Shown: piece after piece, positions 13,450 to 38,603 of the stretch
How positions within the stretch are numbered: the first letter of the stretch is position 1
How the letters are laid out: each line of letters starts with the position of its first letter
NCBI GenBank assembly: GCA_963762115.1
Contig: CAVXJH010000003.1
Coordinates: 64,001-128,000 of the forward strand
Source of the DNA: Candidatus Babeliales bacterium
GTDB taxonomy: Bacteria; Babelota; Babeliae; Babelales; JANWKD01
Length of the DNA stretch: 64,000 nucleotides
Direction: 5' to 3'
Notes under the pieces: model-generated
The model's database searches: none
What the model saw: the letters and a program-made list of their open reading frames with translations, nothing else
Told to the model about the DNA's origin: nothing
Made by a program: the position numbers and the translations under genes

Positions 13450-16400
13450 GTGAAGATTGTAGTAGTAATAAGTAGTCTATTCTTTTTAATCTTTTCTTTA
13501 CAATCACAATCAAATGAGTGTGATACAACTCAATTTGTTGATTGTGCGGGTGAACAATGTGTTCTTGCTGATCTTACTCAATCATATCAAACGGCACTTA
13601 GTTTACTTTCTTGTCTGGAAAAAGAAATACAACAGCTGCCGCAACAAAATCAAATTAGTTTAAAAAAAGAGTCAAATGATGCAAAAATAGCTATTGAGAC
13701 ATTGTATAAAGAAAATACAACAGCAATTGGTCTTTATACAAGTCGTCCTGAACCATTTAGAGGACGAGCCATTAATGCACAAATACGATCTGGCAAGCAG
13801 GCTATTGAATCCAAGGTTAATAAATTACAAACTATCGTTAGTAGTACGCAAAATGCGTTAGGATATACTAAAAAAGCTGAAGAAGATAAACAAAAACGGA
13901 TTAAAGCTGCAAAAGAAGCTGCTGCCTATCACGCTTCTATGATGAAGCTGTTTCAAGATTTAAAACCACTTATGGCGACGTTTAATACTATTTCAGCAGA
14001 AAATTATGCTATTATTTCAGATCTTTATAAAGCAAAAAACTTTGAAGCAAGTTTTGTACCTCGTATTGTAAAAGTCACGCAAGAGTGGCAAAAACTTACA
14101 CAACAATTTTCTGAAATATATCAAAAAAACAAGCAACCAATTGCTATTGATGATACAACAAATTATGTAGTATTGAGTATTCGCGCATTGATATATTTTT
14201 ATTCTAATCTTTTAGAAATGCAACTTACTAACATTAATCGTTTGAAAAGAAATGATGCGTATCCGTTCTATAGTTCATTAGTAACACAATTATTGGGAAC
14301 GGGAAAAAGTGCTGATGTTCAGGGGTTGGGGTATGATGCCACTATAAAAAATCTTATTGCAACCTATTTTAAAGACGATCAAGCATATCTGAATAAAGTG
14401 TATTTACAAACAAAAGTAAATTTAACCTATAATCGCTATAAATCATTATTAAATGGCTTGATTGCCCGTGGGGTTGATCCAGAAAAACAGTTGGTTTATG
14501 CTGAGCAATTTTATGCATTAATTATGAGCGATAATAAAGCTTTACCTGCAAATCAACAAGCGGTTGATGCTCGAGCTGCAAGCAGTACTCTTGCATTGTT
14601 ATATGTATTAAGTGCGCAAGCGCAGATGAAAAAAATGCGTCTTGATAAAGATACGCAACCAATGCGTGAAATGGCAATCGCGTATTATAAAAAAGCCGCT
14701 GGTTATTATAAAATCGCTGGTGATGGGAATAATGAACAAAATTGTATTGGTTTATATACTAATTTAACACAAGCGACAGCACTGTTAAAGCAAGCAGAAT
14801 CGGCAAAAAAAAGTAATGATTTAAAGAATGCAATCGATCTTTATACGCAAGCACAAGCGGCATTTCAAAATGCAGGAGATACTGTTGATGCCAGCACAAC
14901 TTCGCTTGTGTTGCTTGATGTTGAAGCGCAATATTATCTTGATCAAGCAAAATCGGTTAGTGATGCTCTGGAAAAAAAAGCGGTAGTATTTACTGATGTG
15001 GTGGTTTCGAGTGGTTCTCCAACCATTGTTCCAGAAAAGAATGCTGCATTTACGACTTTTATTGCTACGTTGAATGAATCTTATAAAAATATTTTTCAAT
15101 ATTATTTAAATATTGTAACAGGGTATCAAACTCGCGCAGACCAAGATTCTTTAACAGCCCCTTCACAGGAAGTGGTAACGCGTGTGCATGTGCTTAATCT
15201 TGCTGCATCAGCAGTACAAAAAATTATCGAAGCAAATACGTTGTTAGTGAACGGGGATGCTGCTCTCAATGCAGGCTCTATCGCTGCTGCTCAAGAATCT
15301 TATAAATCAGCTGTTGTTTTATATCAATTGGCTGATGAATTATATGTAAAAAATCCACAACTTGTTGGCTATATACCGTTGTATCCAGCAACACTTTCTC
15401 TTGATAAAACCACTTCATGGAGTTATGCGCTTATTGCTCAGCGTCATATTACTAAAATGTTTGTTGAGTTAGCAGCTAAAACCACCGATTTAGTGTTAGC
15501 ATTTCATTATTATACGAATGCACAATTGAGAAATCATTATTTAAGCCAAGAAATGCAGCAATTTTTGGATGAAGCGATAAAAAAAATTATGGCACAACCT
15601 GGCATTATGCAAGAGATTTATGCAGCAGCTCAAAAAGCAGAAAAGGAAGCTTTAGCATTATCATCAGATGCTTGGAAAGCCACCATTGGTGTTGGTTATA
15701 GTTCATCGGCTGATAGTGCTTGGGAGCAAGTGCTTCGATTTTATAGCGCATTATATAAAAATGGTGATACGCAGATTAGAGCTGATTATGTAAAAGCAAT
15801 TGATGAATATGCACTGGCATTTGGCACTCATGTCCCTGAATCTTATTATCCAGCATTGGGAACAGCTTTAATTCGTTATCACTCATATGTTCTCTCTATG
15901 GTTGAAAATGATGAAAAGCAAGCTGAACTGGTGTTAAAAAGTATTGATGAGTTAATAGTGCCTTTTTTCCAAACGGTTGAATCATTGGTTGCTGCTGTTG
16001 ACAACAACAGTTTGCTTACTTCTTCATCGGGAAATCAAGAAGAAGTTTTACGTTGGCAACAACGGTTTGATCAAGCATTAGTCCAACAGGAAGATGTATT
16101 AGATGAATTAGCGCAAAACATTGCTCTTGATCAACGAAAAGTCTTGTTATTGTTAGAAAAAACTGTTGACGCACAAGAGGCAATAACTGATACATTCTTG
16201 CCGGCAAAAAAATCAGTTATTTTGGCTAATCCGCCTCTTAAATTAGCTGACGTCACTAAACAATTGGGAGATTATTATTTTCAAAAAAAAGACTATATTT
16301 TGGCGTACCCATGCTATGCAGATGCACAAAATCAATATAAAAATGGTAATAGATATGATAAAGTAACCACTTTGCAACAGCAATTTGATAGTGCAAAAAC

Positions 16401-18399
16401 ACTGTATTATGGTTCATTGTATCGTGATAGTGTTTTGCCACAAGGTTCAATTAAATTTGATTCTTTTAGCGCACCAGCTTCTTATGATTTGAAGATGTAT
16501 AAACAACCGGTGCCAAAAATTGTTGCTGATCAATTTCCTTCTGATGCAACAATAAAAGGGTATTCCAAGGAACAAGTTTCCCAATTTACAATTTCTGTGA
16601 TGATCGATATCTATCTTTATTGGTGGATTAAAGATGCTTTTGGTGAATCAATGTATGCGCAATTGATTGAAGTTATGAAGTCATCATTAGGAAAAGAAAA
16701 AAATGCTATTATTGCCGCGGTAGCAGCTGTTCTTGATGATGAAGATGATCAAGCAAATTGCGTTAATATTATCATGAATGCAAAACAATTTCGTAAAGAG
16801 TTGACTGATCGGGTTGCGCAGAAAAAGACATCATTTTCATTGGAACAAGTGCATGCAAAGGACGGTACTCTTGAATATATCTTATATGAGCTGTACATTC
16901 CAATGCCACAATTTCCTATGGCGCAAATAGATACAACAACTATGTTTTATTTAGAATACCCTTCTGCAAGTTTATTTTACTTGTGGTCTTCTTTGCTTTT
17001 TGCCCCGGGTAAGGATCGTGTTGTAGTGAATAGAGCTTCTTTCACGCCTGGTAATCGTCCTGATCTTTATCAAGAAATACTCGATAAAACTCTTGAGCTT
17101 TATTTTTCAAAGGCGTATGAATATCAGATAAAAATTAATGAACTCAAGGCGAGTGATGCGTATAAAAAACTAATAAAAATGAATAAAAATGATATGTCGG
17201 TAAAAATTGCTGATTATCTAGATTTGCTGAATGGTATAAAAGATAATTATCAGCAAATGATTCTCAATTGTGATAATGCTCTTAATCAAAATTTTATTGA
17301 TAGAACGAGTGCTAAAGGAAAAAGCATAAATACATTAGTTGGCGAATTATGTAAAAAATTGGGCGATGAATTAAGTGTATTTTTAATTGGTGATCCTCGA
17401 TCCGCGGATTATCATGTAACGGTGTTGGATTCTATTTCGGCAGCTTATATCAATGCCATTATCAATTATGGTTATGATCAGAATCTTTATAAAAAATATG
17501 CGGAGTATTGTAAAAATGGTGGCGATATTTTGGTGCAACAGGGTATGTTTTTTGTATCTTCACGATTGTATGTAAAAGCAGAAAAGGCATATCGCAATAT
17601 TACCCCACAAACACCTGAGTTAAGTGCACTTGCTGATGCAGTCGCATTATTGCGATTACAAAATGTTTGTAAGGCCGCAACAATAAATGTTGGACAGTAC
17701 CTTGATGCACGAGTAAATGGTGTGACGATAAAAAATGATGATGGAACAACAACCCAGAAATCGCTTGATCAGATTATTGCTGATTATAATGCGGCCTTGC
17801 AGCAATCAGGTGGCGCAGAAGGTGTAACAGGGCTTGATGCACAATCGACAAAAGCGCTGAATGATTTAAAAGGTAATTTCCTTGATGCGCTCATTTTTTA
17901 TTCAGGTTCTGTCCTCGGTTCAAAAGAACAGTATGTCTTGGGGTTTAGCTTGTTAGCGCAAGGTAATGCCGATAAAATAGATGATTCTGTTATAAAAGAA
18001 TCTGGGAATATGGTGAACGAGTATATGCAAAAAAATGGTATTATTTTTAAAAATGAAATTTCAGTTGATGCGGTAACAACAATCACCTTAGCATTGCAGC
18101 GTTCAAATTTTCCCGATGGTAAAACTATAGCTGAGGTCATTCAACATGGCTTTGATGGCTTTGTGAAAAAGGCTACGTCAACTACGCAAAAAGCAACGGC
18201 CTATCAAGCGTTATCAACCTGGTGTTCATTGCTTTATACGAGTTTTGGCTCATTATATATTAATGACTTTTTGGGTGGCATGCCAACCAAACCTGAAGAC
18301 CTCGTTGCTGCAGTTAGTAATTTAAAAGTTAACGTTGAGACCGAAACAAACGCTATGAATAGTGCAACATGGCAATATATTGATACTGACAATACATAA
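13450..18399 (+). CDS. Giant secreted alpha-helical/TPR-like protein (1649 aa)
   Basis: Signal peptide; recurring A..Y..A...Y..AGD helices; RBS AAGGAG. Confidence 0.8.
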   Translation: MKIVVVISSLFFLIFSLQSQSNECDTTQFVDCAGEQCVLADLTQSYQTALSLLSCLEKEIQQLPQQNQISLKKESNDAKIAIETLYKENTTAIGLYTSRPEPFRGRAINAQIRSGKQAIESKVNKLQTIVSSTQNALGYTKKAEEDKQKRIKAAKEAAAYHASMMKLFQDLKPLMATFNTISAENYAIISDLYKAKNFEASFVPRIVKVTQEWQKLTQQFSEIYQKNKQPIAIDDTTNYVVLSIRALIYFYSNLLEMQLTNINRLKRNDAYPFYSSLVTQLLGTGKSADVQGLGYDATIKNLIATYFKDDQAYLNKVYLQTKVNLTYNRYKSLLNGLIARGVDPEKQLVYAEQFYALIMSDNKALPANQQAVDARAASSTLALLYVLSAQAQMKKMRLDKDTQPMREMAIAYYKKAAGYYKIAGDGNNEQNCIGLYTNLTQATALLKQAESAKKSNDLKNAIDLYTQAQAAFQNAGDTVDASTTSLVLLDVEAQYYLDQAKSVSDALEKKAVVFTDVVVSSGSPTIVPEKNAAFTTFIATLNESYKNIFQYYLNIVTGYQTRADQDSLTAPSQEVVTRVHVLNLAASAVQKIIEANTLLVNGDAALNAGSIAAAQESYKSAVVLYQLADELYVKNPQLVGYIPLYPATLSLDKTTSWSYALIAQRHITKMFVELAAKTTDLVLAFHYYTNAQLRNHYLSQEMQQFLDEAIKKIMAQPGIMQEIYAAAQKAEKEALALSSDAWKATIGVGYSSSADSAWEQVLRFYSALYKNGDTQIRADYVKAIDEYALAFGTHVPESYYPALGTALIRYHSYVLSMVENDEKQAELVLKSIDELIVPFFQTVESLVAAVDNNSLLTSSSGNQEEVLRWQQRFDQALVQQEDVLDELAQNIALDQRKVLLLLEKTVDAQEAITDTFLPAKKSVILANPPLKLADVTKQLGDYYFQKKDYILAYPCYADAQNQYKNGNRYDKVTTLQQQFDSAKTLYYGSLYRDSVLPQGSIKFDSFSAPASYDLKMYKQPVPKIVADQFPSDATIKGYSKEQVSQFTISVMIDIYLYWWIKDAFGESMYAQLIEVMKSSLGKEKNAIIAAVAAVLDDEDDQANCVNIIMNAKQFRKELTDRVAQKKTSFSLEQVHAKDGTLEYILYELYIPMPQFPMAQIDTTTMFYLEYPSASLFYLWSSLLFAPGKDRVVVNRASFTPGNRPDLYQEILDKTLELYFSKAYEYQIKINELKASDAYKKLIKMNKNDMSVKIADYLDLLNGIKDNYQQMILNCDNALNQNFIDRTSAKGKSINTLVGELCKKLGDELSVFLIGDPRSADYHVTVLDSISAAYINAIINYGYDQNLYKKYAEYCKNGGDILVQQGMFFVSSRLYVKAEKAYRNITPQTPELSALADAVALLRLQNVCKAATINVGQYLDARVNGVTIKNDDGTTTQKSLDQIIADYNAALQQSGGAEGVTGLDAQSTKALNDLKGNFLDALIFYSGSVLGSKEQYVLGFSLLAQGNADKIDDSVIKESGNMVNEYMQKNGIIFKNEISVDAVTTITLALQRSNFPDGKTIAEVIQHGFDGFVKKATSTTQKATAYQALSTWCSLLYTSFGSLYINDFLGGMPTKPEDLVAAVSNLKVNVETETNAMNSATWQYIDTDNT

Positions 18400-21087: not shown

Positions 21088-21161
21088 TTTTTCTGCATTG
21101 TAACTAAAAAAAAAATTTATATACTTGTAATCACGCTTTGTTTTTACTGGTAGAGGATTTT

Positions 21162-23564
21162 ATGAGACGTACTATTTTTTTTGTAGTTGTTTTTTTGTGT
21201 GCATTATTTTCGCAAGCCGTTGCAATGGAAATATCTGATAATTCAGCAGTAACTTTTCCAAGAATTGTTCCTCGATTAACTGATATCGCTGCCAAAGCAT
21301 ATGTACAGAAAAGAATGGTCGATGAATACAAATCTTTTGGTATTGATGAAATGACGACTGACAATCTTACTGATGATATTGGTCAAAAAATTAATAGCAT
21401 GCAAAATACAATGCGGGTTGGTAATATTATTGAGGTCCCTGTTGAAGTTAATGATATTTTAGCACGTCATACTTTTAATGCCTTTTTTGAACGTGAAGAT
21501 ATTGAAGATGAAAAAAAAAGAAGAAGAAAGAAGCGATGGAAGTATAATTTAAAAGTAGAAAATAATGAAGAAAGAGGTGTTAAAAAAATATTTTTTGAAG
21601 ATGGAATGCTTTGTTTGGTAAAAAAAGGACATGAGCTATTACTGAAATCAAATGATTCTGAAAAAACAATCGTATGTGATAATTATGCCATATCAAAAGA
21701 TGGTAAACAAGCAATAGTCATTTTTAATTCACCGATTGTTAATGGCTATTATGCTAAAAAACCAACAGTTCGCCTTATTAACACGGTAAAAGAATGTGAA
21801 ATGGATTCTGAACTTGAATTACCTGGTATTCATCCTGGTTTGAAAATATCAGTTCAAGCATTTGATTCTAATTATATTCAATACAGTTTTGGCAATGATT
21901 CCAATGATGCTTGTAAGTTATTTTATGCTTTTGACAAATCATTACTATGTATGGCAACAAAAGTTAAGAATTCTCAGTGGAAGCGTTTATTAATGCCAAA
22001 AGATTGCTTACATTGTTATGATTTTAAAGTTTTGTCTGATGGAAAAGCGGTATGTGCGCTTGTTGATTCTTATGATTCTTCTGAAAAAAAAATTCAATTA
22101 CAGCGTTACATTCCTTCTTTAGAAGGAAGTGAGATAATACGAGAGATCGTATGTCCCGAGTTGTTGTTCGTTCCCGATGGAACAGAAAGGATTACTCTTA
22201 ACGATGTCACCGATGATGCAATACTATATTCAGTTCATATTCCTAGCGGTAATGGATCATTAAGAGAAAAAAAAGTTTTTCAGTTGTCTGATAAAAAAAT
22301 ATTTGTTCAAAATAATACTCATCCAATACCTTTGGATAATTCAATGACTTCTTGTATGGATTTTAAAATACATTCTATGATTCCATCATGTATTGTTGCT
22401 GTACGTTCGCAAGATGATTATCCTTTAGCAAAAATATTTTCTTTGCATGATACTCTATGGAATGAGGTTAAAGAATTTAAATTTCCTTTTACCAATCAGA
22501 ATGATAGGGTAGAGCTTTATCGTTATAATGATAATTGGATTCATTATGGAATTCCTTATGAGCAGCAATTTCCTAGTTCTCCAAAATATTTAAAAGTTCT
22601 TTTAACTCCTGATGAATTATTATGTATTAAGACTAAAGCAGTAGTGAGGACAGATAATTTTGTGGTTCCTTTGCCAACAACTGAAATAATAGAATGTGAT
22701 GATTTTATAGTGTCAGAAGATGAAAATTCGATTGCTATGATACAATATCCTGTTAATTATGACCCTGACGATAAAACTTATGTTGAAGTGATAAAAAAAT
22801 GTATTGAAGAAATAGACGGTCAAAAGAAAGTTACTTGGAGGAAAGTATCACAACTATCATTTCCTTTGCTCTCAGCAATTAAATTACAAAGTCTCAATAG
22901 CACTCATTTATTGTGTAGCATTCGCGAAAGACCTTTAGCCGATGATGATGGGGGATGCTTAGGAGGGAAAAAACTTTCTCGAAATTTTGGCAATAGATTT
23001 AGGGTTTTTAGTCTAGATTCTCATACTTTGGTATATGATAAATATCATTCTTATGGTGAACAGCCTCTTTTGCCTACATTTGGCAATAATGCGAGGCTAA
23101 CCAATGTGACATTAGAAGAAATTTTAGGAAATGTAGCCTATACCAATATTAAAAAGAATATTGCAGAACAAAATCAGAAATTTTCATCGATGAGAGAAGA
23201 ACAAATTCGAAAACAATTAGTAACTTGCTCATCATTATTAAAAAGTCATGAAACAAAACATAAGGTAATGCAAACACAAGAAAGATTGCAAAAAATCTAT
23301 AGACGGGCAAGTTTTTTTACAAAAATAAGAATGTGGGCTCGGCGATGGCGAAATTTTCTTAAACCAGTTATCTATTTAGGCAATTGGAGCACATGGTCAA
23401 ATGCATTATTAGGATTACATTCATTTAATAGTAAGAAAATGACGTGTTTAAAAGTTGGGCTTGGCTTTGCGATATCTTTTCCTGTTTCATCTTGTTTGAA
23501 TGATTTTCTGATGTGTGGTTCTTGGCAAAAAGATGATCAAAAATGGTGGAATAAACAAAAATAA
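21162..23564 (+). CDS. Large secreted hypothetical protein, probable beta-propeller-like effector
   Basis: Signal ...AVA|ME, GAGG RBS, basic KKRRRKKR stretch, repeated (D/N)(F/Y).(V/I)..D strands. Confidence 0.75.
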   Translation: MRRTIFFVVVFLCALFSQAVAMEISDNSAVTFPRIVPRLTDIAAKAYVQKRMVDEYKSFGIDEMTTDNLTDDIGQKINSMQNTMRVGNIIEVPVEVNDILARHTFNAFFEREDIEDEKKRRRKKRWKYNLKVENNEERGVKKIFFEDGMLCLVKKGHELLLKSNDSEKTIVCDNYAISKDGKQAIVIFNSPIVNGYYAKKPTVRLINTVKECEMDSELELPGIHPGLKISVQAFDSNYIQYSFGNDSNDACKLFYAFDKSLLCMATKVKNSQWKRLLMPKDCLHCYDFKVLSDGKAVCALVDSYDSSEKKIQLQRYIPSLEGSEIIREIVCPELLFVPDGTERITLNDVTDDAILYSVHIPSGNGSLREKKVFQLSDKKIFVQNNTHPIPLDNSMTSCMDFKIHSMIPSCIVAVRSQDDYPLAKIFSLHDTLWNEVKEFKFPFTNQNDRVELYRYNDNWIHYGIPYEQQFPSSPKYLKVLLTPDELLCIKTKAVVRTDNFVVPLPTTEIIECDDFIVSEDENSIAMIQYPVNYDPDDKTYVEVIKKCIEEIDGQKKVTWRKVSQLSFPLLSAIKLQSLNSTHLLCSIRERPLADDDGGCLGGKKLSRNFGNRFRVFSLDSHTLVYDKYHSYGEQPLLPTFGNNARLTNVTLEEILGNVAYTNIKKNIAEQNQKFSSMREEQIRKQLVTCSSLLKSHETKHKVMQTQERLQKIYRRASFFTKIRMWARRWRNFLKPVIYLGNWSTWSNALLGLHSFNSKKMTCLKVGLGFAISFPVSSCLNDFLMCGSWQKDDQKWWNKQK

Positions 23565-27079: not shown

Positions 27080-27206
27080 ATAGGTAATCAGAGTTGGTAA
27101 TAATTTCAAATTGACTTTTATTTAAAATAGTATAATATGATTATATCAAGGGCAAATAACCCTCATAGAAATATTGATCAAGCCACTCCATTTTAGGGAA
27201 AAAATA

Positions 27207-29768
27207 ATGAAAAACTTCAAAAAAATAACCTTATTTTCACTCTTAAGCATCTTATTTATACCTCTTTTGGGTATGGAAAAAGGAAACCAACCCATTCTTA
27301 CCTGGGTTAAATCAAAAAATAACGATGAGTCTATTTCTTTTACAGACAACGAAAAAATGCTCAGTAATACACTGGAATATATGACTCATGGAGAAGAACC
27401 TTCGTCGCAAGATAACCCATTTCAGCTTGAGGTATCGTATAATACTCTTAATATTTGTAAGACAATCTTTAGTGGTCTTCAAACGGTGTCAGATATACCT
27501 GAAGAAGAAAAAGTATTAAATATAGCAAATTTTTTTTCACAACCACATCTCAATTACGATAAAGATGAATTCAACTTTCTTGATATACCTCTTGTGGAAA
27601 AAGCTTTTAAGCTATTATCGCAACAACAAGGCATACCAACCTCAAATAAAAAAAGGAAACGAGAAGAAGAGCAAAAAAACGCCCAGGCAAAAGAATTATT
27701 TAAAAAACAAAAAGAAGGTTTTGAGGAAGAAGAATTTGTAACTATTAAAACGGCTGATGATCAACAAGTGATAATGCCAACACGTTGGTTACGACTGTTG
27801 CCAACATTGAATAATGTTGCCGGTGATATAGAGGATAGTGAAAATATTATTTATGCTCCTATTTTTGCACAAGGTCTTACTATTCTTAAGGATATGTTTT
27901 TTGCGGTCGAAGAAGCTAAAGAAAAAATTGTTTTTAATCTTGATGAACAATGCATTGAACGTCTTGCTTGTTTAGAAAAAGAAAAAAAAGAAGAGTTAGA
28001 CAAATTAGATTTTTTATTAACAAAACAATGCGATGAATTATATGAATTATATAGTAAAAATAGTAACATAGGTCAGTTAATATCCTCATCAAAATTACAC
28101 GTTACTCCTTTGCCACAATCTGCATTTTCTCCACAAAAATTACAACTTACTCCCTTGCCACAATCTGCATTTTCTCGAGGATTAGAAGATTCTATAAAAA
28201 AATTAAAAAATGACGCACAAGAAAAAAAAGAGTTACTTATAAAGTCATTTGCAGTAAAAGAAAAATCAATCAAAGAGCAGTGTATCGGTCTAAAAAATTT
28301 CAATATTAAAAATTTCAATATTATTAAGACAGTCAAGCAACATTTTGTCAGTAAAGAGTTGTCTTTTGAAGAAATTATGAACTTAGCAATGTTAGGTGAT
28401 TTTACAGGATGTTCGGTATTATTAAAAGCTGCCATTAGTTTAGGGCGTGATCATATTTTGGCAAATCCTCGCAATGGTGATTATAAGTTTGAAGAATTAT
28501 CACATGAGATTGCAACGATATTTAATGAAAAACTACAAAAAACTATTACAAAAAGCATAGCTTCAAATATAAAATTTTTAAATGGTATTGGTGAATGTTC
28601 TTTTTCAAATGATGGGAGAATTGTTGTTCAAAATACTACTGGTTTAAATATTGTTGATTTAAAACGAAAAACAACAAGAGAGATATTTGATTACAAGCAA
28701 GGTGATATGCGAATAATAGGAGGAAAGGAACATGCACTTATAACAGCAACAGGGCATCAATCAGGTTTTATATCAATGGTAAAATTATATCAGTTTAATA
28801 CTGATGGTTCAGGAATAACAATGCAGGTAAGTTTTAATGATGACCCACTACGCTTTTATCTTTGTAATTATTCATTTGATACTGAATTAATAACGTGCCT
28901 TGGAGAAACAGTATCGCCAAGTAATAATGCAAAATTATTGTGGCATTCTTCAGATCAAGCAGTAGTTTTTATAGAAGAAAAAAGCCGCAGACATCATATA
29001 ACTTCACTATTCTTTGGCAAGAAAGAAATAGCAATACGACATGGCGCACGGGTATTACCTTATTGTTTTACTGGCGATCACCGTAAACTTATAACATGTG
29101 GCATTAATTTATGTGACCAATCACGATCTGATCAAGATAGAGAGTCGAGCATGAATTATAGTTTATGTAGAATATGGGATACAAAGACTGGGGATGAAAT
29201 TGCGACTTTAGATTATGCAATTGATAATGTACATTCCATAGCATGTTCCTCTGATGGAGAGATTTTTGCAATATTAGATGAAGATTTATTTATTTATGTT
29301 TATAACATGAAAACAAAAGAGATGATATCATGTTTTAATGCATATGGCGCAGTAGAGCAGCCAGATGATATAGATTCCTTTGATATTACACCTAATAATC
29401 AATATATCATTATTGGAGGCCGGAAGTTCAGACCTCCGTATACTTCAGGAATAAAATCAATATGGGACATAAAAAAAGGTGACAACGTTTTTAAGAATAA
29501 TAACGTTTACTCTATTCTTTGCCAGCCAGATGGTTCAATAATTATACGAAGAAGTCAAGAACATAAAATTGTTACTGACCATATTTTATATGATATACAG
29601 GCAACTCAGGTAGCATTGCGCAATTGTTCATTAGACGCATCATTGTTGATGGCAAAAATAATAAACAGTAAGGATTATTATGTATTAAGTCCTGAAGAAA
29701 AAGAGTGTTATCAAGTACTTCCAGAAGTATTAAAAAATATCGTAAACCTACATATCGCAAAAGAATAA
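27207..29768 (+). CDS. Secreted Skp1/BTB-like + WD40 repeat protein (candidate effector)
   Basis: Signal ..LLG|ME; WD40 blades (CRIWDTKTG, IACSSDG, FDITPNN, SIWDIKKG); Skp1-like segments; KKRKR. Confidence 0.8.
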   Translation: MKNFKKITLFSLLSILFIPLLGMEKGNQPILTWVKSKNNDESISFTDNEKMLSNTLEYMTHGEEPSSQDNPFQLEVSYNTLNICKTIFSGLQTVSDIPEEEKVLNIANFFSQPHLNYDKDEFNFLDIPLVEKAFKLLSQQQGIPTSNKKRKREEEQKNAQAKELFKKQKEGFEEEEFVTIKTADDQQVIMPTRWLRLLPTLNNVAGDIEDSENIIYAPIFAQGLTILKDMFFAVEEAKEKIVFNLDEQCIERLACLEKEKKEELDKLDFLLTKQCDELYELYSKNSNIGQLISSSKLHVTPLPQSAFSPQKLQLTPLPQSAFSRGLEDSIKKLKNDAQEKKELLIKSFAVKEKSIKEQCIGLKNFNIKNFNIIKTVKQHFVSKELSFEEIMNLAMLGDFTGCSVLLKAAISLGRDHILANPRNGDYKFEELSHEIATIFNEKLQKTITKSIASNIKFLNGIGECSFSNDGRIVVQNTTGLNIVDLKRKTTREIFDYKQGDMRIIGGKEHALITATGHQSGFISMVKLYQFNTDGSGITMQVSFNDDPLRFYLCNYSFDTELITCLGETVSPSNNAKLLWHSSDQAVVFIEEKSRRHHITSLFFGKKEIAIRHGARVLPYCFTGDHRKLITCGINLCDQSRSDQDRESSMNYSLCRIWDTKTGDEIATLDYAIDNVHSIACSSDGEIFAILDEDLFIYVYNMKTKEMISCFNAYGAVEQPDDIDSFDITPNNQYIIIGGRKFRPPYTSGIKSIWDIKKGDNVFKNNNVYSILCQPDGSIIIRRSQEHKIVTDHILYDIQATQVALRNCSLDASLLMAKIINSKDYYVLSPEEKECYQVLPEVLKNIVNLHIAKE
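28091..28175 (+). repeat. 45-nt in-frame tandem duplication (KL..TPLPQSAFS x2)
   Basis: aaaattac...ttactcc.ttgccacaatctgcattttct occurs twice. Confidence 0.9.
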
Positions 29769-31060: not shown

Positions 31061-31288
31061 AATGTATCCTGATTTGTTTAACTAGACTGTGCTGTGCATA
31101 GTTGATTGTATAAATGTAATGATAGCATGCTTGTTCAAAAAATAAATTTTTTCAATTAAGTGTGTTGATCGTTATTGTTAAAAGATTTACAATTGATTTG
31201 TTAAAGTAACCATTCATTTACTTTTATCAAAAAGCCGTTAGCATGAGAGCAATTTATTATCACCATTTAATGACGCAGGAGCTCTTTA

Positions 31289-32968
31289 ATTCAGCACAAA
31301 TCTTTTCTAACGTTAAGTATATTCTTAGGTTTTTTTGTTTTTGATGTATCTCTTCAAGCAATGAATCGTGAAGGTCAGCAATATCCTGTGACTTTTCCCA
31401 GACCAAATAATAATGGATCTGATAGAAGTCCTACGGCTCAATCATCTGAAAATGATATGCCTGTTAATAAAGAACAATTTTCAAGATTTGTACAAGCTGC
31501 GGTGATTGAAACATTAACTAAGTTGCATGGTGGTACGCCAATAGAAGAAAAATCATCAACTGAAGAAAAATCTCCGGGGGAAGGATTTTTTAGACCAATT
31601 TTTGATGGCGAGGACTCATCAAATTATGAAAAACTAGATTCAAATTTTGTAAGATCGCTTGTTGACCATGCTCCTGAAAAATTAAAATTCATTATTAAAT
31701 TGTATGCAAATCCTAGATCTTATGGACTTGTATCACAAAATAGTTGTTTCAAAAATAAATTTTTATTATATGGCCCTCCTGGTGTGGGTAAAAGTTCTTT
31801 AGCAAAAGCTTTTGCTGATTATTGTGATATTCCTCGTCAATTTATTGTGGCAGCATCATTACTTAATCAATATCAGCACTCAGGACAACAAAATCTTCGG
31901 CAGCTTTTTGATCCTCTTCTTGCAAAAAGAAGTAAAGATCCTAATGTTATTATTTTTGATGAATTTACTTCTGTGATAAATACAGATGAAAAAACTGGAA
32001 AAAATAATGAAGAGAAAATGTTATCAGTATTGTTGAATATTTTAGATAGTCTTGAAACGCATAAAAATATAATTTTTATTGCAACAACAAATGATATTAA
32101 AGTATTACCCCCACAAATTAAAGATCGTTTTTCAGGGTCGATATTTAAAATTCCTAATTTTGATTTTAAGCGTCGTGAGCAATTTTATCATTATATAAAA
32201 AACAAGAGAGCAAAAAATAATTTTGAGAAGGAAAGAACAGAATTAACAGAAGAATTTAATGAGGAAATAGAATTTGATGTTGTCTTGGATGATAAAGAAA
32301 TAAAAGATTTATCAAAAAAATCATCCAATTTTGAGGGACGCGATCTTAATGAAGTGCAAGATGCTGCAAGTATGTTAGCACTAAGAAAATATGTCGATGA
32401 AGATTTTAATATTATTCAATTATGTATTCCTGTAACAAAAGAGTGTTTTATTGCAGCAATACAAGAAATTCAAGTAATTAAACGCGAAACAGCTTCGGGT
32501 TTTTGGAAGCGTCATAAAGAAACATTTAGAGAATTTTATCCACTTTTTTTATCAACATTTCAAGTTGTTGCTGGGTTAGGGTTGCAATGGTTTTCAATGA
32601 ATCAGCAATATAAGCTTGCGCAAACTAATCACAATGATCAATTGGCACTTATGAGTACTTTTCAAGCTTCACAAATGAAATTTTATGAAAGCACTCATGA
32701 TCAGCAGGTAGATTTTCAAGATAGAGTTCAAAAAGAACAAGCAGTATTTCAAAATAAGGTACATATAGAGCAAATGGCACAGCAAAAAGTGTTGCAAGAA
32801 AAAGCTAATGAGCAACAACTAGCATTCCAAAAACGGGTGCATAAGGATCAACTTGAACTTAGTAGAGAACTAAGTCATCAACAATTAATGATGCAACTTC
32901 ATATGTCAACCTGGGGATTGATTTTGCAAGGCACCCTTGGGCTTTGTGGTTTAATACTTCCGAAATAG
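31289..32968 (+). CDS. AAA+ ATPase (FtsH/Cdc48-like module) with probable signal peptide, C-terminal TM and Q-rich coiled coil; track start 31361, proposed ATT start 31289
   Basis: GPPGVGKS, IIFDE, IATTN, IKDRF; in-frame hydrophobic leader after AGGAG. Confidence 0.85.
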   Translation: MQHKSFLTLSIFLGFFVFDVSLQAMNREGQQYPVTFPRPNNNGSDRSPTAQSSENDMPVNKEQFSRFVQAAVIETLTKLHGGTPIEEKSSTEEKSPGEGFFRPIFDGEDSSNYEKLDSNFVRSLVDHAPEKLKFIIKLYANPRSYGLVSQNSCFKNKFLLYGPPGVGKSSLAKAFADYCDIPRQFIVAASLLNQYQHSGQQNLRQLFDPLLAKRSKDPNVIIFDEFTSVINTDEKTGKNNEEKMLSVLLNILDSLETHKNIIFIATTNDIKVLPPQIKDRFSGSIFKIPNFDFKRREQFYHYIKNKRAKNNFEKERTELTEEFNEEIEFDVVLDDKEIKDLSKKSSNFEGRDLNEVQDAASMLALRKYVDEDFNIIQLCIPVTKECFIAAIQEIQVIKRETASGFWKRHKETFREFYPLFLSTFQVVAGLGLQWFSMNQQYKLAQTNHNDQLALMSTFQASQMKFYESTHDQQVDFQDRVQKEQAVFQNKVHIEQMAQQKVLQEKANEQQLAFQKRVHKDQLELSRELSHQQLMMQLHMSTWGLILQGTLGLCGLILPK

Positions 32969-32974
32969 GTAAAG

Positions 32975-33673
32975 ATGTACGTGTTTAAAATAATTTTTTT
33001 AGTAATTTCATATCAGGTCATTTTCCATGCAAATGCTATGGAAGATAATCATAATCGGCAAACGATTATTAATGTCAATTCACATTCAGTGTCGAATCAA
33101 TGGCCCATAGATCAATGTAATGAAAGTTCGAGATTTGCAAGAGCTGAATCATTGAAAAATAATGCGCCACATTTATCCCAACGACAATTGCAAATTTTAG
33201 TAGATAGACATTATGCATTGCACATTGAAAATAATCGGATAAATAAAGAAGTTGTCTCTAATCTTTCGACGTTAAGTATACACTTTAATAATGAGCCTTT
33301 GCAGCAACTTTTATCGCTTAGTAAGTTTAGTGAGCCTTCTCTTGGTCAGCAACAGGCCAAAACAATTGATAATCTTATCGGTATTTTATATACCCCTCAA
33401 GGATGCCCAAATTTACAGTTAAATGCTTATGAAAAAGTGCAAGTTGCCAGGATAATAACTAATGAATTGAAAGTGCATAAACCATGCGGATATTTAGCTA
33501 TTATTAAAGATTTAGCTTTAAGAAATGCAGAGTTTCAGGAAATTGTAGCACAAGAAACAAAGCTTTTCCCTTGGGCTAAATATAAAACTACCGAGTGGTG
33601 TGGGCTTGTTAAAGGTCTTTTCTGCGCAATGCACGGTAACATAAATATAGAAGAATTAAAAAAAATATTTTAG
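32975..33673 (+). CDS. N-terminal part of a frameshift-split toxin-like protein
   Basis: Signal ..ANA|ME; ends just after an A8 run where a -1 shift enters the frame of 33703-35424. Confidence 0.7.
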   Translation: MYVFKIIFLVISYQVIFHANAMEDNHNRQTIINVNSHSVSNQWPIDQCNESSRFARAESLKNNAPHLSQRQLQILVDRHYALHIENNRINKEVVSNLSTLSIHFNNEPLQQLLSLSKFSEPSLGQQQAKTIDNLIGILYTPQGCPNLQLNAYEKVQVARIITNELKVHKPCGYLAIIKDLALRNAEFQEIVAQETKLFPWAKYKTTEWCGLVKGLFCAMHGNINIEELKKIF

Positions 33674-33702
33674 CAAATGGCTTTAATCATGATCTGATAA
33701 TA

Positions 33703-35424
33703 ATGAGAGAAGCCTTTTTGAAAGGTGATTTTTTAGAGGCAAAAAACATAACTGATGCATATAACAAACCTACAGAATTGTATGTCGGTCTTTATGCAGC
33801 TCTACGGGGTGTGTATGATGCTCGTATTGAGGAATATGCTAAAGTAGTTGAACCAGATAATTTTGCTTTAACGCAATCATACCTTCAGGGTTTCGTCATT
33901 GAGCGTAGAGTAGTTCCCTTGGCTGCTAATTTGATGAATGAAATAAAAAATAATATCAGTGCAGGGGCGCCAAAAGAGCAGACTCAAAAGTTGCAAGAGC
34001 AATTAGTGCAATTGGATGCTTATGCACGACAAGTGCGCAGTAACTATTCTTTTGATGCTCAAATGAAATTGGCTGATTGTGTATATCAATTGGAAAATGA
34101 GCTTGGCGTTAATTGGCGACCAGAATTGCGCAGATCACCTTCAATGGAAAAACTATTTGTTCCGCAAACAGATTTTCTTGTTACAAGCAAGGAAGTTGGT
34201 ACTATTTCATTGGCAGAATTAAAAAAGTTTTCTGGGACGACGGTTGAACAAAATATTTTGCATGAAAAAATGGTTGATCATTTTGTTAAAATCGATTCTT
34301 TAAGTGGGCAACTCAGTGATAGTAGTGTAGTACAGGCTGTTGAAACCTATAAAACTCTTATTGCTCGTGCGCATGAATTAAATAAAGATAGTCGCGTCAC
34401 TTTAGCAGAAGGTGTGTTTACTATAGGCAAGGATATGGTTGAAATTGCCGTGTTTGATCCCCCTCTAAAGGAAATTGAGGATTGCCTTATTAAAACAGCC
34501 ATGAATCCTGCTGATTATGTTATAAAAACAATTGAAGGTTATAAATGTGTCGCAAGTGTCATTCTTGATGTTTGTAAGAATTCTTTAGCTGGAATCGCAT
34601 CCACACCTGAACAACAAGTTGAATTTGCAGAACATTATAATCAACTAATTCATAATTTTTTTGAAGGTTGGCAAAAACTGGAAATAGCTCAAAAAAAAGA
34701 GTTTTTAGCACAAATTATTGTTGATACAGCACTTAATAAAGTGGTTTTCTCATTACCGAAGCTTATGTTAAAAATGGGTGGTTCGAGTACCATAAGTGAT
34801 ATTGTGCAAAAAGGTGAATCTTTTCTTAATAGAATTGATCCCGGATCTTCTGGTGGTGCAGTTGCTCGTGCTGTTCCAATAGCCGCAGCTGAAAATGTTG
34901 TTGAGGCCCTAGAATTTGCGGCAGGTGTTGTAGGGTCAACGGCAGTTGCTATAACTTCTGCTGGAGCGCAAAATGTTGTTGCTTTATCAGAAATGATGAA
35001 TGGAGGTGATCAAGCAAATAAATATAAATTACCTTCATCATTGGGAAAAATAATAGAAAAAACCCCGCTCGATGCTCCAATTCAAAATGATAAAGATATT
35101 ATTTATACTGTAGAACCCGTAATTCAAAATACTATCAAAAAATTTGACGTAACCCGTAAGATTTACAAACACGCATTTGATCCAGATCATGAAATATCAA
35201 AATTCGGTTTATCAGATTTTGAGGCTTTCAATATTTTTGTCGAAAAAATTTTAAGGGCAGATATTGCTAATTATTTACAAGAACCAGGAAATCAAATAGA
35301 AACATTTATCAATGGGTTTGAAGGGACGGTAAGAATTCATATAAATAAAGGAATTGTAACAAGTTTTAATTGTTTTTTCGGTTATTCAGATAGAGTAATT
35401 GGAAAATTAATAAAGATGGATTAA
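33703..35424 (+). CDS. C-terminal part of a candidate polymorphic toxin (helical stalk, Ala/Gly linker, alpha+beta tip with KH..D.H)
   Basis: Domain architecture and tight coupling to immunity-like genes; toxin family not verified. Confidence 0.65.
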   Translation: MREAFLKGDFLEAKNITDAYNKPTELYVGLYAALRGVYDARIEEYAKVVEPDNFALTQSYLQGFVIERRVVPLAANLMNEIKNNISAGAPKEQTQKLQEQLVQLDAYARQVRSNYSFDAQMKLADCVYQLENELGVNWRPELRRSPSMEKLFVPQTDFLVTSKEVGTISLAELKKFSGTTVEQNILHEKMVDHFVKIDSLSGQLSDSSVVQAVETYKTLIARAHELNKDSRVTLAEGVFTIGKDMVEIAVFDPPLKEIEDCLIKTAMNPADYVIKTIEGYKCVASVILDVCKNSLAGIASTPEQQVEFAEHYNQLIHNFFEGWQKLEIAQKKEFLAQIIVDTALNKVVFSLPKLMLKMGGSSTISDIVQKGESFLNRIDPGSSGGAVARAVPIAAAENVVEALEFAAGVVGSTAVAITSAGAQNVVALSEMMNGGDQANKYKLPSSLGKIIEKTPLDAPIQNDKDIIYTVEPVIQNTIKKFDVTRKIYKHAFDPDHEISKFGLSDFEAFNIFVEKILRADIANYLQEPGNQIETFINGFEGTVRIHINKGIVTSFNCFFGYSDRVIGKLIKMD

Positions 35425-35429
35425 AAAAA

Positions 35430-36146
35430 ATGAATAAAAATGAATTACATACATTAATTGAAATGTATAGTCATGAAAGGTCCAAAAAAAACACCGAAGC
35501 TTTAGAAGTTTTTTTGGAAGATTGTTTAAAAAATAACCCTTTTGATACTTACTTATGGGTTAAACTAGCTTTAACCGTATATCATCGTCCTTTGTTTGAT
35601 GACTTAAAAGCAATAGCATGCCTTGAAAAAATTCTTGAGTATGATCCCCATAATGTAAAAATAACACTTGTATTAATATACATGGTGAGCAATTGTAAAT
35701 TTTTTGATGATGAGTTATTTGAAAGATTATGCAAACTACAAACTCAAGATAAAGCATTACTCTCATTAATTGAATATACAAAATCATGGTATTATCTGGA
35801 TGAAAAAAATGATGAAATGTATGAGCAATGTTTAATCAATTCAATTAACTTATGCAGTGAATATCTGTGGAGTTATGTTGATTTGGGACAATTTTACCTT
35901 CAAAAAGGTAATTTAATAAAAGGTCATGAATTAATGAAAGAAGGGTTAAAAAAATTAGAATATGTTTTTGAAGAAAAACCTGCAAAAGATATTTTAAACC
36001 TTGAAGAGTTTTTGAATGAACGTTTTAAAGGGATTCATCTAGGTAAATCAAATTATAATATTATTTTGGAATCATTTGATCCAAAATCTCCCTGGATTAC
36101 CTGTGATTTTTTAACAAAGATCAGTAGAGATACAACAGAAAATTAA
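35430..36146 (+). CDS. TPR protein, candidate cognate immunity protein
   Basis: KAIACLEKILEYDPHN and YVDLGQFYLQKGN TPR motifs; 5 nt after the toxin stop; no signal peptide. Confidence 0.75.
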   Translation: MNKNELHTLIEMYSHERSKKNTEALEVFLEDCLKNNPFDTYLWVKLALTVYHRPLFDDLKAIACLEKILEYDPHNVKITLVLIYMVSNCKFFDDELFERLCKLQTQDKALLSLIEYTKSWYYLDEKNDEMYEQCLINSINLCSEYLWSYVDLGQFYLQKGNLIKGHELMKEGLKKLEYVFEEKPAKDILNLEEFLNERFKGIHLGKSNYNIILESFDPKSPWITCDFLTKISRDTTEN

Positions 36147-36151
36147 TAATA

Positions 36152-36682
36152 ATGATCAAATTAATAGATTTCAAGAAGAATGCTATTTCAATATCCTGGA
36201 AAACTATATTAGTTGGAAGAACATTAAAATTAGTGGATACCTCTTTTATTGAGGATTTTGCAACTCAATATTTACTAGATCATTATAAATTAGAGAATAA
36301 AGATATTATTGAATTGGCTTATGGTGTAAACGACACTTTTGAAATTGATGAAATGGTCAAAAAAATATTGAGCGAATTAAACCAAAATATAGATGAAAAT
36401 TCAGAAGAATGGAATATCGAAACAAGAAAATGGCGTTTTTTAGTATTACAAGAATTACTAAGTAAAGGTTATGATAATAGAAAAATTTTAGATGAAATTG
36501 AAAGCATATATTGTGATTTTGATCACCCTGAAGAAATGAATGCTTTTTTGATTTATATGCCTCATGTTTATGATGATGGATATAATATTAAAGATCATTC
36601 AGCTGAAGAAAATATAGCGCACATAGTGAAGCGGTTTAAAGATTTTCTTTTGAATGAACATAAAGAGCTATTAAAAAAATAG
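36152..36682 (+). CDS. DUF2247-like protein, candidate immunity protein
   Basis: W..I..G, KW...L..L, IE.IY.DFD.PEEM..F..YMP, H..EEN pattern. Confidence 0.75.
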   Translation: MIKLIDFKKNAISISWKTILVGRTLKLVDTSFIEDFATQYLLDHYKLENKDIIELAYGVNDTFEIDEMVKKILSELNQNIDENSEEWNIETRKWRFLVLQELLSKGYDNRKILDEIESIYCDFDHPEEMNAFLIYMPHVYDDGYNIKDHSAEENIAHIVKRFKDFLLNEHKELLKK

Positions 36683-36711
36683 TTAAAAAAAATTATTAAG
36701 CGAAACAAAAT

Positions 36712-37290
36712 ATGAAAAAAATTTTTATACTAATCCTTTTTTTAATGGTAACTCAATCAAATTATGCTTTTATATTAGATGGATTATTAAAAATCGAAGA
36801 TTCAGTTGATGCAATAAAAATTGCTGCAGTTGATCTAGAACACTATGCAGATCAGATAACAACTTTTCGAAGAACCATATATACCGGCAGAAGCTTTGTT
36901 ACTATTGATGATTATTGGTGTGAATCCTTAGCTGCAAAAAGAAGTATTAATGAATATAACAACCAAGAACAGGCTCTTCAACTAAAAATTCTATTGAGTC
37001 TTTTATTTGATACCTTTGTTTTGGCAAATATTGCTGGATATTGTCATGCAAAATTTAATATGAAAATGCCTACGGTGATTTGTGGTATTATGGCAGCTGC
37101 TTTGGGTATAGTTGCTCATCAAAACAATAAAATGAAGAATGTGCCTTATTTTGATTTTTATTTAAAGCGGCATGAAGATAGATTCGATAATTTTAATTTT
37201 TTTAGTGCATTTAGATTTGCTTTTATTACTATAGAAGCAGGACTTATGGCATATTTGACACGAGCTTTTTATGAAATTCCATTCAACTAA
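36712..37290 (+). CDS. Hypothetical membrane protein with signal peptide (~3 TM)
   Basis: MKKIFILILFLMVTQSNYA|; three hydrophobic segments. Confidence 0.7.
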   Translation: MKKIFILILFLMVTQSNYAFILDGLLKIEDSVDAIKIAAVDLEHYADQITTFRRTIYTGRSFVTIDDYWCESLAAKRSINEYNNQEQALQLKILLSLLFDTFVLANIAGYCHAKFNMKMPTVICGIMAAALGIVAHQNNKMKNVPYFDFYLKRHEDRFDNFNFFSAFRFAFITIEAGLMAYLTRAFYEIPFN

Positions 37291-37301
37291 TAGGATATGC
37301 A

Positions 37302-38543
37302 ATGCAACGGAATTATTTAATACGATTTTTTTTAATTGTTATTGTTTTTATTAATAATAAGACAATACTAGGTCAAGTAAATTCTAAAAACGATAATAAA
37401 AATAGTTCTTATCAAGAGTCTTCTTCTGAAGCACCTAAAAATACTTCTGATGAAATTGATCGTTTGTTAGGAGCAAGAGAGGAAGAGTTTAGGAAAAAGA
37501 ATACAGAAATATGCCTTTCAAAAAAAGATATCATTCTTGATTCAGATCTTGTTATAGAATTGTTTTTGCAATGTCCGGAAAGATTGCGTTATATCATTGA
37601 AACATTAGTTATGAGAAATCGATTTGATAATGATTTATATCAAGGATTCATTCCACAACATATCGTTCTTGTTGGCCCTCCGGGCGTCGGGAAAAGTACT
37701 ATTGCGCATGCTATTGCCCAAGCTGCGGGAATTCCATATACCTTTATCAGAGCTATGACACTTGCTAATGAATACATAAATTCAGGGCCGAGCAATTTGC
37801 TCAGAATTTTTGATCCAATATTGGCAATGGATGAACCATATATTGTTATTATCGATGAATTGCAGACACTCATTAAAAAAAGAAATAACAATGAATTTGA
37901 TATGGCGGCTGCCGAAGTATTATGGATGTTGCTTGATGAATGCAAAGCAAAAAATAATATTTTAATTATTGCAACAGCAAATCATATTTCTGATTTGCCT
38001 GAACAGTTAAAAAGTCGTTTTGCAAAAAGTGTATATGAAATTAAATTGCCAGGTTTGATAGCACGTGAAAAAATTATTAGTCACTATATAACAAAAAGCA
38101 AGGTTAGTTGTTATGATATTTCTTCAATTATTAAAAATTTGGCACGAAAAACAGTTGGTTTCTCTCCTCGTAATTTAGAGGATTGCATAACGATTGCCCT
38201 TTCAAGAGCTTTTTTTACGGCAAGAAATGAAGGTTGTCTTGCTATGACTCTTACTAAAGATGATTTAGATGTAGGATTTGCTCATATTAAAAATCAAAAA
38301 AATAATTCTTATTTTGTGCCGCAATGGTGTAAAGATTTTGTTAAATATGTTGGTCCGGCAACAGTTATTTCACTTGGTCTTAATGTTGCACAAATGGCTT
38401 TATATTTTTTTTTACAATACTGCGATCGTAAAGTTCATCTTGCCATGACACAAGCTCATCATGATGATTTTGTACATATTAATACAATGCATAATCAGGC
38501 CATATTACAGCAAAATGAACGATTTCATCGTGCAAAGATATAG
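37302..38543 (+). CDS. Second AAA+ ATPase, paralog of 31289-32968, with signal peptide and C-terminal TM
   Basis: GPPGVGKS, IIIDE, IATAN, LKSRF, GFSPRNL; Q/H-rich tail. Confidence 0.88.
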   Translation: MQRNYLIRFFLIVIVFINNKTILGQVNSKNDNKNSSYQESSSEAPKNTSDEIDRLLGAREEEFRKKNTEICLSKKDIILDSDLVIELFLQCPERLRYIIETLVMRNRFDNDLYQGFIPQHIVLVGPPGVGKSTIAHAIAQAAGIPYTFIRAMTLANEYINSGPSNLLRIFDPILAMDEPYIVIIDELQTLIKKRNNNEFDMAAAEVLWMLLDECKAKNNILIIATANHISDLPEQLKSRFAKSVYEIKLPGLIAREKIISHYITKSKVSCYDISSIIKNLARKTVGFSPRNLEDCITIALSRAFFTARNEGCLAMTLTKDDLDVGFAHIKNQKNNSYFVPQWCKDFVKYVGPATVISLGLNVAQMALYFFLQYCDRKVHLAMTQAHHDDFVHINTMHNQAILQQNERFHRAKI

Positions 38544-38563
38544 CTAAAGCTCATACATTATAA

Positions 38564-38603
38564 TAAACAAAAAGAGAAGCAATCGTGCTTCTCTTTTTGT
38601 TTA
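38564..38603. terminator. Bidirectional intrinsic terminator
   Basis: taaacaaaaagagaagca / tgcttctctttttgttta 18-bp inverted repeat between convergent genes. Confidence 0.85.

Follow-up and report, generated by a model that had tools for sequence, protein, structure and literature searches.

A predicted variant of polymorphic toxin systems in Babelota and its facultative link to a Cdc48-like AAA ATPase

Among the described systems closest to the locus analyzed here is the S8 polymorphic toxin system (S8-PTS), which the available excerpts of its descriptions present as a Sec-exported kind of polymorphic toxin, with a signal peptide-BetaH-Ntox35 protein accompanied by a secreted S8 peptidase (PMC9424270, bioRxiv 10.1101/2025.07.24.666436). 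Our locus lies in the 1.53 Mb genome (G000, 95% complete) of a Candidatus Babeliales bacterium, within a stretch of 64,000 nucleotides that was analyzed as a whole (G000:C3:64001-128000, in the following the window). Seven open reading frames (ORFs) of the + strand form one co-oriented run with gaps of 6, 29, 5, 5, 29 and 11 nt in the ORF list of the window, placed as in a first-pass annotation of the stretch (gaps of 5-29 nt). They encode two AAA ATPases, a putative toxin split over two frames, a tetratricopeptide-repeat (TPR) protein, a DUF2247 protein and a protein with three transmembrane segments (3-TM protein). As in the S8-PTS, the toxin and its relatives in Babelota combine a predicted signal peptide and a conserved body with variable tips, Ntox35 among them, and with a putative downstream immunity gene, and a second, presumably secreted enzyme is encoded just upstream. 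This helper, however, is an AAA ATPase and not a peptidase (no peptidase match was obtained in the five long ATPase members scanned). Further differences are the TPR-type candidate immunity protein, the bodies of 450-1500 aa, for which the full-length toxins scanned gave no informative Pfam or NCBIfam match, and the host organism, an intracellular parasite of protists.

Cdc48-related ATPases are genetically tied to toxin delivery in other systems as well: the relevant sections of a 2012 survey assign CDC48-like ATPases to the route of the Photorhabdus virulence cassettes (PVC) and ClpV to type VI secretion (T6SS) (PMC3482391). In contrast to PVC and related extracellular contractile injection systems (eCIS) and to the T6SS, no tail sheath or VipB match was found in the 95% complete genome, the ATPase has a leader of its own and, in most members, just one AAA domain, and the toxin carries a predicted signal peptide. 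With the LXG toxins of the type VIIb secretion system (T7SSb) the Babelota toxin shares a helical pre-toxin body and a hydrophobic linker, and LXG bodies are its nearest clusters in language-model features (0.90). This resemblance, with 134-139 of 256 features shared against a usual value of 170, is a lead only; unlike LXG toxins, the Babelota toxin has a predicted signal peptide, and the genome gave no LXG or WXG100 match. With contact-dependent growth inhibition (CDI) and MafB systems it has in common a pool of toxin and immunity families (EndoU, Ntox35, CdiI_N, CdiI_ImmP, Imm38 and Imm40) and a tip fold nearest to CdiA-CT. The ShlB/CdiB match in the genome, however, stayed at 18 bits (cut-off 22.7), and no haemagglutinin, two-partner secretion (TPS) or MafB domain was matched in the toxin bodies scanned. 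The initial impression that markers of the known delivery routes are missing thus holds in this genome for CDI, T6SS, T7SS/LXG and PVC.

Predicted secreted AAA ATPases are also expanded elsewhere in the same phylum, Babela massiliensis having a family of signal-peptide AAA-Ulp1 proteins (PMC4378268). In the parts of that report that describe them, these proteins differ from ours in being fused to a desumoylase and in having no link to a toxin. The literature that we searched on toxins, immunity and secretion in Dependentiae/Babelota contained no description of the present system; a mention in a large toxin survey may exist. Judged from its sequence, the locus is a variant of polymorphic toxin systems that is widespread in Babelota and new to this literature.

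Toxin tips and immunity genes

The locus is very likely a toxin-immunity system. This reading, already advanced in the first-pass annotation, is strongly supported because the tips vary, the window tip is Ntox35-like, tips and immunity genes are paired and orphan immunity genes occur. The body type of the window bears three different tips in close relatives. A second toxin locus of the same genome, on contig C6 (L001:3863-11947, G000:C6:555862-563946), encodes an ATPase, an intact toxin of 1096 aa with a different tip (tip B) and a DUF2247 gene split by a frameshift; the intact DUF2247 gene of the window is 60-64% identical to this split copy. The syntenic locus of genome G001 consists of ATPase 1, a 793-aa toxin with tip B, DUF2247 directly behind it and ATPase 2. 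The window-type tip recurs together with the TPR gene in a locus of genome G004, and another locus of G001 carries a third tip. Since the window and G004 loci differ from the C6 and syntenic G001 loci both in the tip and in the downstream gene, the two have evidently been swapped here on a shared body. A comparison of 42 large proteins placed 33 bodies in one BLAST component and 7 in another; their tips formed 15 clusters, one of which comes from a probable non-toxin, leaving 14. The variability of the tips on one body, which had been surmised from the window, is therefore found both for the window body and across the family. Tips and immunity proteins with a Pfam name across the loci include EndoU, Ntox35, CdiI_ImmP and Imm40.

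The window tip is predicted to be an Ntox35-like RNase of the BECR fold. It has no Pfam match of its own, Ntox35 (PF15534) included; 27 of 30 aligned relatives match Ntox35, and a 58% identical relative reaches 20 bits (cut-off 23.6). An H-x5-H motif is retained with the spacing of H199 and H205 in the tested Ntox35 of S. aureus, a domain with a His pair six residues apart that kills bacteria according to the available part of the study (bioRxiv 10.1101/2025.07.24.666436). A structural model of the tip (predicted local distance difference test, pLDDT, of 89) consists of a helix and an antiparallel sheet, and a fold search returned CDI toxins as the closest folds, with modest Z-scores of 5.2-5.7. 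No match came from sequence searches of the PDB for which DUF2247, tip B or the tip alignment served as the query. Tip B has no Pfam match either; we infer that it is Ntox19-like because a table of the 2012 survey, as far as its pertinent entries go, pairs Imm38 and Imm40 with Ntox19 (PMC3482391).

The TPR protein (238 aa, with TPR matches that all stay under the Pfam cut-offs) is likely the immunity protein of the Ntox35-like tip. Its family is present in 30 of the 261 genomes searched. In 10 of 22 loci outside the training set it immediately follows an Ntox35-like tip; in two more the overlap lies slightly beyond the limit applied, and the remaining ten lack this arrangement. The parts of the 2012 survey that bear on Ntox35 give no immunity family for it (PMC3482391). 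The next gene (176 aa) matches DUF2247 (PF10004; E 2e-30, 106 bits against a cut-off of 25), in agreement with its original reading as DUF2247-like; in the corresponding section of the same survey this family is named Imm38 (PMC3482391). DUF2247 stands behind tip B in three loci other than the window, so that the window copy is an orphan. Its likely cognate tip is the C-terminal end of the C6 toxin and of the syntenic G001 toxin, and it may cover the C6 toxin of its own genome. The initial assignment of small immunity genes behind the toxin thus stands for the TPR gene, whereas DUF2247 belongs to a different tip. CdiI_ImmP is paired with yet another tip in two loci. Further orphan immunity genes or tip cassettes are EndoU cassettes in L066 and L096 and CdiI_N in L015, where three similar small genes (the one scanned being CdiI_N) follow an inserted gene of 1151 aa that itself comes behind the TPR gene (L015:2551-8768). 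In L122, L132, L113 and L167, two to four toxin-immunity pairs that differ in their tips are arranged in tandem, for the most part with no ATPase next to them. In genome G003, one toxin end with its TPR genes is found at both the start and the end of contig C1 (L016 and L062), the two copies being inverted relative to each other; the assembly therefore lacks the DNA upstream of this toxin.

The core domain of the body, D2, was found in 126 of the 261 genomes, a second body domain, D1, in 39, and the profile of the window-type body in 6. Twenty D2 members had no Pfam family in common. When proteins were searched with the D2 profile, three of 7995 scored candidates were returned, all of the training type, and a locus search of genome contigs gave four loci of the family and one weak, unrelated match.

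What had been taken for a split toxin gene is one gene with a frameshift. The 232-aa and 573-aa ORFs are interrupted near an A8 run at about 33658-33665: relative to the intact 793-aa homolog, one frame extends up to about 33664 (residue 226) and the other begins at about 33655 (residue 224), and the 5' part is 40% identical to residues 4-226. Since frame changes are also present in 7 of 237 conserved genes of the same assembly, decay and an assembly error are about equally likely causes. A contig from a DNA run (X1, low depth, possibly the same sample) covers 31200-31329 without a difference, a coverage that excludes the frameshift site.

The AAA ATPases and their link to the toxin

As far as gene neighborhoods tell, the link of the ATPase to the toxin is strong but facultative and not obligatory. 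We inspected 40 ATPase-centered windows from part of 70 matches outside its own family, with short contigs and the rest left out. In 31 of these, a toxin-body gene was located no more than 3.5 kb from the ATPase; the ATPase was directly upstream and co-oriented in 25, and 14 contained a toxin or immunity family that has a Pfam name (EndoU, Ntox35, CdiI_ImmP). Twenty offset control windows from the same genomes (387 kb) contained no toxin-body gene. All five family ATPases of G000 fall in its two toxin regions, and the linkage was seen in families f1, f3, f6, f11 and f19. The adjacency suggested by the window accordingly recurs in homologs, with varying tips. For 28 upstream pairs, the similarity of the ATPases correlates with that of the bodies (rho = 0.32, p = 0.0005); for the tips the values are rho = 0.08 and p = 0.13. 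The gap is 50 nt or less in 24 of these pairs, and best hits agree in 14. ATPase and body are co-inherited in this set, a pattern that linkage alone would also give. D1 was considered as an ATPase-binding module and rejected: D1 is not matched in the window, and the ATPase is kept in family f6 and with the G001 ortholog although both largely lack D1.

Both ATPases of the window match Pfam AAA (E 5e-26 for ATPase 1 and 4e-26 for ATPase 2). The closest solved structures are those of VCP/p97/Cdc48, and NCBIfam scores of 58-62 bits against full-length cut-offs of 600-800 for CDC48 and FtsH place them in neither family proper. With five Cdc48 and two FtsH proteins as the outgroup, 108 of 108 cores form a separate clade (support 0.745). 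The AAA motifs read in the window extend to the whole family: of 109 ATPases, 107 conserve the Walker A lysine and 100 each the Walker B glutamate, the sensor asparagine and the arginine finger. The pore-loop Tyr/Phe is kept in 92. A leader is present in 96 of the 109, compared with 311 of 588 background ORFs. Searched with a profile at E 1e-40, the family occurs in at least 41 of the 261 genomes, a lower bound because six candidates were scored per genome.

In G001, a 50% identical ortholog of ATPase 1 lies upstream of the syntenic toxin and a 65% identical ortholog of ATPase 2 closes the locus. The bracketing of the toxin by two ATPases is therefore real in the window and in G001; as a rule it fails, being one of several layouts. 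Of the two N-terminal leaders noted earlier, that of ATPase 2 stands, and that of ATPase 1 appears only when translation is read from an ATT at 31289 (the first ATG is at 31361); a paralog on contig C6 has a near-identical leader that starts from ATG. The model of ATPase 1 (mean pLDDT 69) contains one long helix of residues 379-511. Next to the C6 toxin lies a paralog of 894 aa, a fusion of ankyrin-like and AAA parts; ATPase 2 shares 50% identity with its AAA part.

Some relatives depart from the single AAA domain of most family members. L150, L072, L163, L176, L175 and L179 include tandem-AAA members, members of 1083-1175 aa with long N-terminal regions, and two or three ATPases in a row ahead of one toxin. 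An 880-aa tandem-AAA match in G000 (G000:C3:371527-374169, outside the window) was rejected as a family member, as it reads as an FtsH with a duplicated AAA domain; tandem-AAA frames of 885-897 aa are likewise present in G003, G020 and G037. A family of 150-220-aa proteins with a leader and a hydrophobic hairpin (L098:7978-8529, L064, L081, L159, L160), unrelated to the 3-TM gene of the window, has 12 members, 9 of them no more than 2 kb away from a family ATPase, and is possibly a third component in some lineages. Two genes that by eye resemble SurA/peptidyl-prolyl isomerase chaperones lie between two family ATPases beside the C6 toxin operon (L001:13729-15830), and this pair also precedes the ATPase in L014.

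Proposed mechanism and competing explanations

Toxin and ATPase both start with a basic stretch followed by a hydrophobic one, which suggests Sec export of the two proteins. Based on the locus comparison we propose the following mechanism. The exported toxin would kill rival bacteria inside a shared host cell via its predicted RNase tip, and the TPR protein would shield the producer. The neighboring, exported Cdc48-like ATPase would thread or release the toxin, with the toxin body as its substrate, and would spend ATP outside the cytoplasm. As a membrane-tethered ring it could catch host ATP en route to the ATP/ADP translocases, which the genome encodes at three loci; two secretins are encoded as well. 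The ATP outside the cytoplasm would plausibly be supplied to this energy parasite by the host cell. We estimate the probability that the ATPase is a facultative helper of some toxin lineages, threading or releasing its own toxin, at about 55%. An undescribed delivery class, in which a Sec-exported Cdc48-like ring in the periplasm or at the surface would use host ATP to thread toxins out or into rivals, is a tentative extension of this proposal.

A number of observations weigh against the helper role. Among windows centered on D2 (one per genome, with five genomes skipped for short contigs and six known ATPase-near loci left out), only 9 of 40 contained an ATPase, so that the original pairing of ATPase and toxin holds as a linkage (31 of 40 against 0 of 20) and not as a universal feature. 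Around D1, which marks the long-bodied subclass, an ATPase was found in 24 of 38 windows, 19 of them strict pairs, and in the other 14 there was none. Conversely, 9 of the 40 ATPase-centered windows had no toxin-body gene within 3.5 kb by automated count, and several ATPases are downstream of the toxin or divergent from it. Genomes G020 and G037, with 10 and 9 D2 matches, have at most one single-AAA candidate each, and action in trans is thus possible there. There is some circularity in the toxin call, as the profiles derive partly from the same loci, and the linkage counts come from kin genomes and are not independent. The C-terminal transmembrane helix initially assigned to both ATPases is marginal, with 19-residue hydropathy values of 1.30 and 1.47 in ATPase 1 and 1.62 in ATPase 2, and 48 of 109 family members pass the threshold of 1.5. 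The pore-loop aromatic is mostly followed by Lys, Gln or Arg and then Asn; in canonical loops it is usually followed by a hydrophobic residue and Gly. The toxin gene of the window is broken and, if the frameshift is real, this copy may be inactive. Finally, leaders are common in the phylum, 44% of Chromulinavorax genes having signal peptides in the available part of the genome report (PMC6561590).

The alternative that survives best takes the toxin-immunity pair as real and the ATPase as a separate protist-directed effector, a mimic of p97/Cdc48 that co-travels in a variable island. VCP/p97 as the nearest structures, the long extra N-terminal regions of some members (one of them ankyrin-like) and the many D2 toxins, indeed most, without an adjoining ATPase, along with some ATPases without a toxin, are in line with this explanation, as is the action in amoeba that the relevant passages propose for the signal-peptide AAA-Ulp1 fusions of Babela (PMC4378268). 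An independent effector is nevertheless unlikely, given that the short gaps in 24 of 28 pairs persist in five families despite low identity and that the ATPase co-descends with the body, whereas the tips turn over. Less probable is a role in defense or quality control, with the ATPase as a dislocase that pulls incoming or stalled toxin from the envelope and is allied to the immunity genes. A second ATPase indeed often stands behind immunity genes (window, G001, L071, L074, L083, L153, L154), and L080 has immunity-like genes beside an opposed ATPase; most commonly, however, the ATPase immediately precedes the toxin (25 of 40), and its similarity does not track the tip. That the whole system is directed against the protist or the mitochondria of the protist, for lysis or addiction, with immunity only against leakage before export, is quite improbable: the bacteria are obligate intracellular parasites and the host cytosol is rich in ATP, but orphan immunity genes and tip cassettes (DUF2247 of the window, CdiI_N genes in L015, L066 and L096) point to conflict between bacteria. 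A host-addiction role is proposed, in the pertinent part of the source, for polymorphic toxins of the Bodo endosymbiont (PMC8163844), whereas host-directed toxins usually come without immunity genes according to the corresponding section of the 2012 survey (PMC3482391).

Locus layout, neighboring genes and implications

The features of the locus are listed in Table 1. The closing terminator assigned at first sight is borne out by a perfect hairpin with a folding energy of -23.5 kcal/mol (z = -8.2), a stability reached by 0 of 200 shuffled sequences; a simple terminator scan of the window did not list it. The 3-TM protein consists of a leader and three hydrophobic segments by hydropathy. It had been counted as a part of the system and was rejected as a core component, since only four copies were found, all of them in G000, and the G001 locus has none.

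Table 1. Features of the toxin locus (positions refer to the window).
Feature	Position	Strand	Description
Shine-Dalgarno-like AGGAG	31277-31281	+	7 nt ahead of the ATT at which ATPase 1 likely starts; from sequence
ATPase 1	31289-32968	+	leader, one Cdc48-like AAA domain, helix of moderate hydrophobicity, long helix rich in Q/H
Toxin gene, 5' part	32975-33673	+	predicted signal peptide and N-terminal domain
A8 run	33658-33665	+	site of the toxin-gene frameshift; frame change against intact homologs
Toxin body, 3' part	33703-35052	+	helical region with D2 core domain; Ala/Gly/Val-rich hydrophobic linker
Ntox35-like tip	35053-35424	+	predicted BECR-fold RNase with H-x5-H
TPR protein	35430-36146	+	no leader; likely immunity partner of the Ntox35-like tip
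DUF2247 (Imm38)	36152-36682	+	orphan immunity gene; Pfam PF10004
Leader and 3-TM protein	36712-37290	+	probable passenger
ATPase 2	37302-38543	+	second family member; leader, shorter tail
Perfect hairpin	38564-38603		flanked by A and T; likely terminator in both directions

Other genes of the window lie outside this run. A leader-bearing protein of 1649 aa (13450-18399), unassigned to a family, has a relative upstream of the G001 locus. Two more large leader-bearing proteins are encoded at 27174-29768 and 21138-23564, the first with weak matches to WD40 beta-propellers. A 511-aa gene that by eye resembles a serine recombinase (61844-63379) possibly marks the edge of a mobile element.

The distribution of the system suggests that bacteria of this phylum, which is known mainly through metagenomes, are engaged in an extensive arms race with one another. 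The toxin core domain is present in roughly half of the genomes searched, in some of them in ten or more copies. The TPR family is a candidate immunity family for Ntox35, and several of the tip families have no Pfam name. If the ATPase is a delivery motor, it would represent a new export route for polymorphic toxins, with an AAA motor working outside the cytoplasm. It would then be an ATP-driven motor in a compartment normally thought to be free of ATP, which would be possible because these bacteria are energy parasites.

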